DNA of 49,854 nucleotides from a virus (Duplodnaviria > Heunggongvirae > Uroviricota > Caudoviricetes): the IMG/VR virus record IMGVR_UViG_2529293239_000010, one strand, 5' to 3'. The notes beneath the pieces are model-generated. The model was given only the letters and a program-made list of their open reading frames with translations. It had not been told where the DNA came from and did not search any database. Position 1 is the first letter of the stretch. Each line of letters opens with the position of its first letter. A program made the position numbers and the translations under genes. Below are positions 11,121 to 11,680 of this stretch, in pieces.

Positions 11121-11357
11121 TTTTATGGATCACCTTTCTGATTGATTTCATATTGGCGAGGTGACGTGAGTTAAGTAGAATGGCTGCGGGTGCTTGAGGC
11201 TATCTGTCTCAGGCATGAACACTGAAAGGCAGATAGAGAAAAGCCCCAGTTAACATTTCGCGTCCTGCAAGACGCTTAACATTAATCTGAGGCCCAATCT
11301 ATGTCTCACAAATGTAGGTTAGCCTCTTACGTGCCGAAAGGCAAGGGGAAGCAGGCT

Positions 11358-11513
11358 ATGAAGCAGCAAAAGGCGATGTTAATCGCCCTGATCGTCATCT
11401 GTTTAACCGTCATAGTGACGGCACTGGTAACGAGGAAAGACCTCTGCGAGGTACGAATCCGAACCGGCCAGACGGAGGTCGCTGTCTTCACAGCTTACGA
11501 ACCTGAGGAGTAA
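11358..11513 (+). CDS. hok: Hok/Gef family type I toxin (with overlapping mok frame starting 11301)
   Basis: 51-aa product MKQQKAMLIALIVICLTVIVTALVTRKDLCEVRIRTGQTEVAVFTAYEPEE is a Hok-family membrane toxin; the longer overlapping ORF 11301..11513 is the mok-type leader frame. Confidence 0.8.
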   Translation: MKQQKAMLIALIVICLTVIVTALVTRKDLCEVRIRTGQTEVAVFTAYEPEE

Positions 11514-11680
11514 GAGACCTGGCGGGGGAGAAATCCCTCGCCACCTCTGATGTGTCAGGCATCCTCAACGCACCCGCACTTAACCCGGTTCGGCGGGTTT
11601 TGTTTTTTTCTGGCATTCTGGTTTACAATTCGCACGTCAGCCTGAACACCTGACACCTGCTGCGCCAGCAGAGAAAACAG

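Follow-up and report, generated by a model that had tools for sequence, protein, structure and literature searches.

A hok/mok/sok type I toxin-antitoxin cassette of the hokD/hokW lineage, most probably intact, in the nin-like region of a lambdoid prophage

The toxin gene, the mok frame and their prophage setting

The DNA analyzed here (the window, 49,854 nucleotides) is a lambdoid prophage with an integrase at its start. Between positions 11153 and 11609, in its nin-like region, lies a hok/mok/sok type I toxin-antitoxin cassette, very probably intact and belonging to the hokD/hokW lineage. This cassette is a moron of the prophage, and the range delimited by a first-pass annotation of the sequence (11130-11620) encloses it entirely.

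The toxin gene (11358-11513, plus strand) encodes a 51-aa product, MKQQKAMLIALIVICLTVIVTALVTRKDLCEVRIRTGQTEVAVFTAYEPEE, that is identical to HokD of E. coli K-12. The first-pass annotation had called it a Hok-family toxin on sight, and the profile searches agree. The product matches Pfam PF01848 (HOK_GEF) along profile positions 1-42 of 42 with 82.9 bits (cut-off, 22; E = 1.2e-23), as expected for a member of the Hok/Gef family, defined as a peptide of about 50 aa scoring above the HOK_GEF gathering score. It also matches PHROG 251, ‘MokW-like host killing’ (E = 2.8e-33). Regarding the NCBIfam models, the one for the Hok subfamily remained below threshold (48.5 bits against a strict cut-off of 73), and so did the one for HokA. 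Because of these sub-threshold matches, the name HokD rests on the identity with K-12 hokD and on the RefSeq annotation, which calls a 99.8%-identical stretch hokD. In phage records the gene goes under the names of MokW, HokD, ‘host killer’ or gef.

According to the ORF list, a mok reading frame of 70 codons (11301-11513, plus strand) begins upstream of hok and overlaps it in frame, as had been noticed at first reading. Its start lies inside the Sok-target hairpin, which together with the overlap identifies it as mok. A Shine-Dalgarno sequence, GAGG (11289-11292), is found 8 nt 5′ of the ATG at 11301, and this ATG is kept in 27 of the 29 leaders that we aligned. The hokW locus shares this in-frame arrangement of mok and hok, and so does an R1-type plasmid locus, against the idea that the mok of R1 is out of frame; an out-of-frame mok is annotated in one Rac-like phage record.

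By direct reading, the Shine-Dalgarno sequence of hok is AAGGGGA (11343-11349, plus strand), whose partner in the closed folds is dcb or ucb. Of the 29 aligned leaders, 27 have AAGGAGA at this site, and the variant of the window replaces a U-A pair by U-G in the dcb/hok-SD helix. The same variant is found in a prophage of O104:H4, which differs from the window by a single base (11457) across 11100-11680. Besides, the Tyr47 codon of Hok is UAC followed by G (UACG, 11496-11499, inside UUACGAA), a context resembling the anticodon loop of the TadA-edited tRNA-Arg, and these four bases are unpaired in the fold of the full-length mRNA. A-to-I editing of the hokC, hokD and hokE mRNAs at the equivalent codon, yielding a second Cys for a disulfide, has been described in a survey preprint.

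On the plus strand, the genes preceding the cassette are a cro-like YdaS, YdaT, a replication initiator, a DnaC-like helper, DUF1627, DUF977 and QueH, while a 90-aa ORF, DUF968, RusA and the antiterminator Q follow 3′ of it. Since the cassette lies between the replication genes and QueH on one side and DUF968-RusA-Q on the other, its initial placement in the ‘nin region’ was fair. The same slot is taken by hok in phage Tritos, in a Rac-like phage, in Qin and in the ompW prophage of O104:H4.

The neighborhood presents several other features. The gene directly upstream of hok, QueH (epoxyqueuosine reductase; 10434-11120, Pfam E = 1.1e-65), is a tRNA-modification moron. Two small overlapping ORFs, 11555-11734 (minus strand) and 11681-11953 (plus strand), are located just past the hok terminator and are hypothetical in RefSeq. 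The second one, the 90-aa ORF, matches PHROG 1212, to which no function is assigned. We considered it as a counterpart of rem, downstream of hokD in K-12, and discarded this idea, as it shows no similarity to the Rem found in the Qin slot. Three tRNA genes (15884-16130) are found downstream of the Q gene and of a 330-aa ORF (14784-15776); in the near-identical O104:H4 prophage they are annotated as Ile, Arg and Arg, with a DNA methyltransferase annotated at the equivalent place. After the tRNAs come two tandem copies of the sRNA family STnc100 (16209-16399 and 16677-16886; 136 and 165 bits), about 280 nt apart. The antisense sRNA DicF (4537-4588, minus strand) gives a full-length Rfam match of 76.7 bits that marks a lambdoid prophage of the Qin/dicBF type. 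Finally, an ALIL pseudoknot (21687-21803, 116 bits), a frameshift element of the IS3 family, suggests an insertion sequence inside the prophage, and an IS009 RNA match (47594-47792, 227 bits) is found near the far end of the window.

The hok mRNA and its antisense RNA

A promoter scan detected TTGGCG-17 nt-TAGAAT (11153-11181, plus strand), with 9 of 12 consensus matches, as the putative promoter of the hok mRNA. It aligns with the promoters of hokW and R1 hok, and the -10 box TAGAAT is identical in hokW. The predicted transcription start, G11188, is position 1 of the Rfam model ‘sok’ (RF01794), which matches the plus strand at 11188-11363 over positions 1-157 of 157, scoring 120.5 bits (gathering score, 59; E = 5e-27). 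Sok is an antisense RNA, and the match falls on the plus strand because the model, which runs from tac to the hok start codon, is written in the sense of the hok mRNA. With this match, the structured leader proposed by the first-pass annotation is confirmed as a homologue of the hok 5′ UTR/Sok region. The terminator that it had proposed 3′ of hok was likewise recovered by a terminator scan (11582-11609, plus strand; hairpin at 11582-11599, then a T-run) and is conserved in K-12 hokD. The predicted full-length mRNA would therefore measure about 420 nt (11188-11607), with a minimum free energy (MFE) of -170.8 kcal/mol (z = -7.0 against 100 shuffles) and its 5′ end paired with its 3′ end.

The elements responsible for this pairing are tac, GGGUGCUUGAGG, at the 5′ end of the mRNA (11188-11199), and fbi, CCUCAACGCACCC (11563-11575), which pair with each other in the full-length MFE fold. 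An unrestricted RNAduplex comparison of the whole 5′ region with the whole 3′ UTR was noisy and gave nothing better than shuffles, so we adopted a duplex test using tac only against shuffled 3′ UTRs (n = 300). The tac/fbi duplex reached -27.7 kcal/mol, compared with -16.1 ± 2.2 kcal/mol for the shuffled sequences, none of which was as good, in agreement with a long-range pairing of the mRNA ends. In other folds tac finds other partners: ucb when the mRNA is truncated at its 3′ end, and 11206-11216 in the consensus metastable hairpin.

The ucb element, or anti-SD of mok (GCCCCAG, 11243-11249, plus strand), can pair with CUGAGGC at 11287-11293, leaving the single C-A mismatch also seen in R1. 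In the full-length single-sequence MFE fold, ucb pairs with the hok SD and not with the mok SD; when the ucb/mok-SD pairing of the closed form is forced, the energy is 0.5 kcal/mol above the minimum. In the MFE fold of the 3′-truncated mRNA, the 5′ end pairs with AAGCCCC (ucb) and the Sok-target (sokT) hairpin forms. Hence, ucb is predicted to change partner, from the mok SD in the closed fold to tac in the open one. Both the truncated fold and the Rfam alignment place sokT at 11289-11326 (plus strand), with the mok SD, GAGG(C), at the 5′ base of the hairpin, dcb, GCCUC, at the 3′ base, and the mok AUG in the stem. Its loop, CUCACAA (11305-11311), opens with the YUNR motif CUCA. Downstream of hok, a 10-bp stem-loop with a GAAA tetraloop (11520-11543, plus strand) appears in the full and the truncated folds and, by analogy with its counterpart in R1 (PMC9841398), would protect the 3′ end of the processed mRNA. 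The same elements and conformational switch are known from the R1 hok mRNA (PMC9841398). Judging from the sequence and its predicted folds, every mRNA element of the R1 paradigm is present here: tac/fbi, ucb/mok-SD, dcb, sokT with its YUNR loop, the 3′ stem-loop and the terminator.

The first-pass annotation had expected Sok on the minus strand at around 11230-11320, a good guess given that our own estimate is 11309-11239. A generic sigma-70 scan found no minus-strand promoter in 11230-11400, and we therefore placed the putative Sok promoter by homology: TTGCCT (11344-11339), a 17-nt spacer and TAACCT (11321-11316), that is, 11316-11344 on the minus strand. Judged by the consensus this promoter is weak (7 of 12 matches), and all of its 29 nt are shared with the sokW promoter; in a minus-strand alignment of the family, its hexamers are kept across most loci. 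The primer YO-421 of Takada 2021 (PMC8621323) turns TAACCT into GAGCCG in a ‘promoter-less’ (‘pro-less’) construct that unmasks HokW toxicity, and the probe YO-597 from the same work is identical to the minus strand of the window.

Taking G11309 as the start and the U-run at 11239 as the end, the predicted Sok would be a 71-nt RNA, which is the length of complementarity given for sokW (PMC8621323). It would fold into a 14-nt single-stranded 5′ tail and a long terminator hairpin followed by UUUU (-30.0 kcal/mol, z = -5.0). The minus strand thus offers a candidate promoter and a candidate terminator, and the cassette appears to encode, in cis and over the mok start, a Sok RNA that has both of its own.

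Conservation and known relatives

Scanning one genome per species, we retrieved 53 related loci; 29 leaders were aligned for RNAalifold and for the conservation counts. In nearly all loci with a recovered pairing, the tac/fbi duplex lies 44-55 nt past the stop codon. It shows compensatory changes, from U-A to C-G at tac position 4 and from G-C to A-U at position 12, with the compensated tac changes (U to C and G to A, respectively) occurring in loci from Photorhabdus, Kluyvera and Pantoea. From the 29 leaders, RNAalifold recovers the metastable 5′ hairpin, ucb/mok-SD and dcb/hok-SD, with 9 covarying pairs; the ucb/mok-SD helix covaries between AU (21 loci) and GC (7 loci). The predicted pairings are thus supported by compensatory changes across four genera. 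As for the open form, 81% of the cells in the alignment are paired, compared with 35-49% in slid controls. The base pairs of the sokT hairpin are invariant in the 29 loci, and the tac/ucb helix is 98.5% paired across them; as this helix never varies, it provides no covariation evidence.

The cassette is widespread. Of 5426 complete E. coli genomes, 4939 match a 581-nt stretch around the locus, and in 3299 the match covers 80% or more of that stretch; thousands of genomes carry the locus with an identity of 95% or higher. A recent survey counted 44,248 Hok homologues and found hok to be four-fold enriched in prophages (bioRxiv 10.1101/2025.08.07.668861).

Among the known relatives, hokD (relF) of the K-12 cryptic prophage Qin shares its whole hok CDS with the window (156 of 156 nt), along with 65 of 67 nt of the 3′ UTR containing fbi and 25 of 30 nt of the terminator. 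It occupies the same slot, with DUF968 (ydfU) and Q (ydfT) downstream, in a lambdoid prophage that bears DicF/DicB. The homology starts at the hok SD (about 11343), with relBE upstream in K-12 and QueH in the window, and the two prophages diverge again directly after the hok terminator. K-12 has relBE in place of the hok promoter, tac, ucb, the mok start, the target hairpin and the Sok promoter and RNA. Because K-12 is homologous solely from the hok SD onward, the window contains the complete, ancestral version of a cassette of which K-12 preserves a remnant, and relF/hokD in Qin is plainly a truncated prophage hok/sok cassette. A K-12-like relBE-hokD arrangement, without tac, is also found in E. 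coli ECDA1023.

A second close relative is the hokW-sokW locus of Stx phages (Sp5/933W/Stx2 converting phage I), characterized by Takada et al. 2021 (PMC8621323). Identity amounts to 104 of 113 nt in the 5′ UTR (92%), 29 of 29 in the Sok promoter, 63 of 71 in the Sok RNA and 148 of 156 in the hok CDS. Both loci have an in-frame mok and the same extra hairpin of 16 nt at the tip of the Sok terminator. Their terminators differ, and so do the C-termini of the toxins, VFTAYEPEE in the window and VFVDYESEK in HokW. The other cluster of differences, in the target loop and the 5′ tail of Sok, makes it uncertain that the two systems would repress each other. Regarding location, the hokW cassette of the 933W group is found near the attachment site, while ours lies in the nin-like region.

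The hok/sok system of R1 (parB) is plasmid-borne and far more distant, with about 50% nucleotide identity to the window and widely different Hok sequences; for HokW and R1 Hok, 44% identity and 69% similarity have been reported (PMC8621323). Still, the order of elements is the same (tac, ucb, mok SD, target hairpin, dcb, hok SD and fbi), the antisense promoter overlaps dcb in both, and both have the C-A mismatch in ucb/mok-SD. In R1 the Sok hairpin is shorter and the first leader hairpin longer than in the window.

One could argue that the cassette is an inactive relic, whole in its sequence and no longer able to kill, be it through poor expression or processing or through a toxin in need of further activation. 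True remnants do exist: the K-12 copy lacks everything upstream of the hok SD, and other genomes contain decayed copies, such as that of E. coli ECMA0423, in which the leader is kept and tac is lost. Besides, toxins of the hokD type have a Tyr in place of the required second Cys and reportedly depend on A-to-I editing. The cassette can also be likened to several chromosomal hok loci that no longer kill: according to the survey preprint, the intact chromosomal hokA, hokB and hokC give neither post-segregational killing nor activation by rifampicin, so structural intactness does not prove activity. Against this, none of the elements of the cassette carries the disruptive changes that the first-pass annotation had named as the mark of a relic; the promoters, tac, ucb, mok, sokT, dcb, fbi and the terminator are all there and pair as expected, the Sok promoter has the sequence of the functional sokW promoter, and the locus has been maintained at high identity in the genomes counted above. 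Moreover, the expressed HokD peptide is toxic, having served as the toxic positive control of the survey (bioRxiv 10.1101/2025.08.07.668861). We consequently deem a relic very unlikely.

In summary of its identity, the locus is the ordinary full-length form of the E. coli hokD cassette, a kind of locus already known and annotated in thousands of E. coli genomes, and it has little importance beyond correct annotation. The RefSeq records that we examined name the hokD CDS only and leave mok, the Sok RNA and the mRNA elements unmarked, so the coordinates given here add annotation detail.

Proposed mechanism and role in the prophage

The molecular mechanism can be proposed with high confidence by analogy with R1 and hokW, while the biological role of the cassette is less certain. 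In R1, the toxic Hok is neutralized by Sok, the mRNA being stable and Sok unstable (PMC1635323), and hokW and sokW form a functional type I toxin-antitoxin pair in which the antitoxin requires the promoter described above (PMC8621323). Following the homology with R1 hok/sok and with hokW-sokW of Sp5, the promoter at 11153-11181 would be constitutive and produce a stable hok mRNA of about 420 nt. Pairing of the 5′ tac with the 3′ fbi would lock the closed fold and hide the ribosome-binding sites of mok and hok, so that this mRNA would be neither translated nor bound by Sok. Slow trimming of the 3′ end down to the stem-loop at 11520-11543 would then remove fbi, after which tac would pair with ucb and sokT would form. 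Ribosomes could now translate mok and, through it, hok; alternatively, the abundant and short-lived 71-nt Sok would pair across the mok start, and the duplex would be destroyed. Should Sok synthesis stop, the stored mRNA would yield the 51-aa Hok, which would insert into the inner membrane and kill or lyse the cell.

The first-pass annotation had proposed an addiction or abortive-infection module, which is only one possibility among several. The sole prophage homologue tested so far is hokW-sokW of Sp5, and what was shown for it is faster lysis, not stabilization of the prophage or exclusion of other phages (PMC8621323). After RecA-dependent induction, the sokW RNA vanishes and HokW is made; the presence of hokW-sokW advances growth arrest by about 40 minutes and raises phage release about two-fold (PMC8621323). 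By analogy, the most likely role of the cassette in this prophage is faster killing and lysis of the host after induction. The biology of hokW may not transfer to our cassette, given that hokW lies near the attachment site in its phage. Overall, we rank lysis assistance first, followed by retention of the prophage, exclusion of other phages and, lastly, a silent relic.

Retention would operate as addiction: cells losing the prophage by excision or deletion would be killed by the stored hok mRNA. Plasmid R1 is the classic example of hok/sok acting in this way (PMC1635323), and the enrichment of hok in prophages reported by the survey (bioRxiv 10.1101/2025.08.07.668861) would fit it. However, the experiments that established post-segregational killing concern plasmids, a chromosomal element in single copy is lost far less often than a plasmid, and the intact chromosomal loci mentioned above failed in post-segregational killing tests. 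Deletion of hokW-sokW, for its part, has no growth phenotype unless the prophage is induced (PMC8621323). As the primary role, addiction thus seems unlikely to us.

Exclusion of other phages would work through the infection itself, with the shut-off of host transcription depleting Sok and Hok killing the infected cell. Prophage morons often encode defence functions, and R1 hok/sok at high copy was reported, as cited secondhand, to cut the plating efficiency of T4 by 42% and its plaque size by about 85%. Yet this effect on T4 required a high copy number, and the prophage homologue hokW-sokW aided its own phage instead of blocking others (PMC8621323). A PADLOC search gave no match for Hok, QueH, the 90-aa ORF or DUF968, and PADLOC-DB contains no Hok model. 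We regard exclusion as a rather improbable primary role, and lysis assistance as the preferred one.

The position of the cassette would allow a more specific link with lysis. A pR-like promoter, TTGACA-18-TAATAT, is located at 6524-6553, and in this phage group the cassette is co-directional with it inside the early rightward operon. Between this promoter and Q (13388), a single intergenic terminator-like site was found on the plus strand, the hok terminator (11582-11609). Because of this arrangement, the cassette could be wired into the lytic switch, with its terminator acting as a nin barrier and read-through from pR silencing the Sok promoter, an idea that we put forward as a speculative one with a small chance of being right. 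If it were true, the hok terminator would delay the expression of Q, like tR2-tR4 of lambda, and after induction the transcription reading through from pR would meet the Sok promoter head-on and shut it off. Such silencing would give the RecA-dependent loss of sokW RNA and the timed production of Hok observed by Takada et al.
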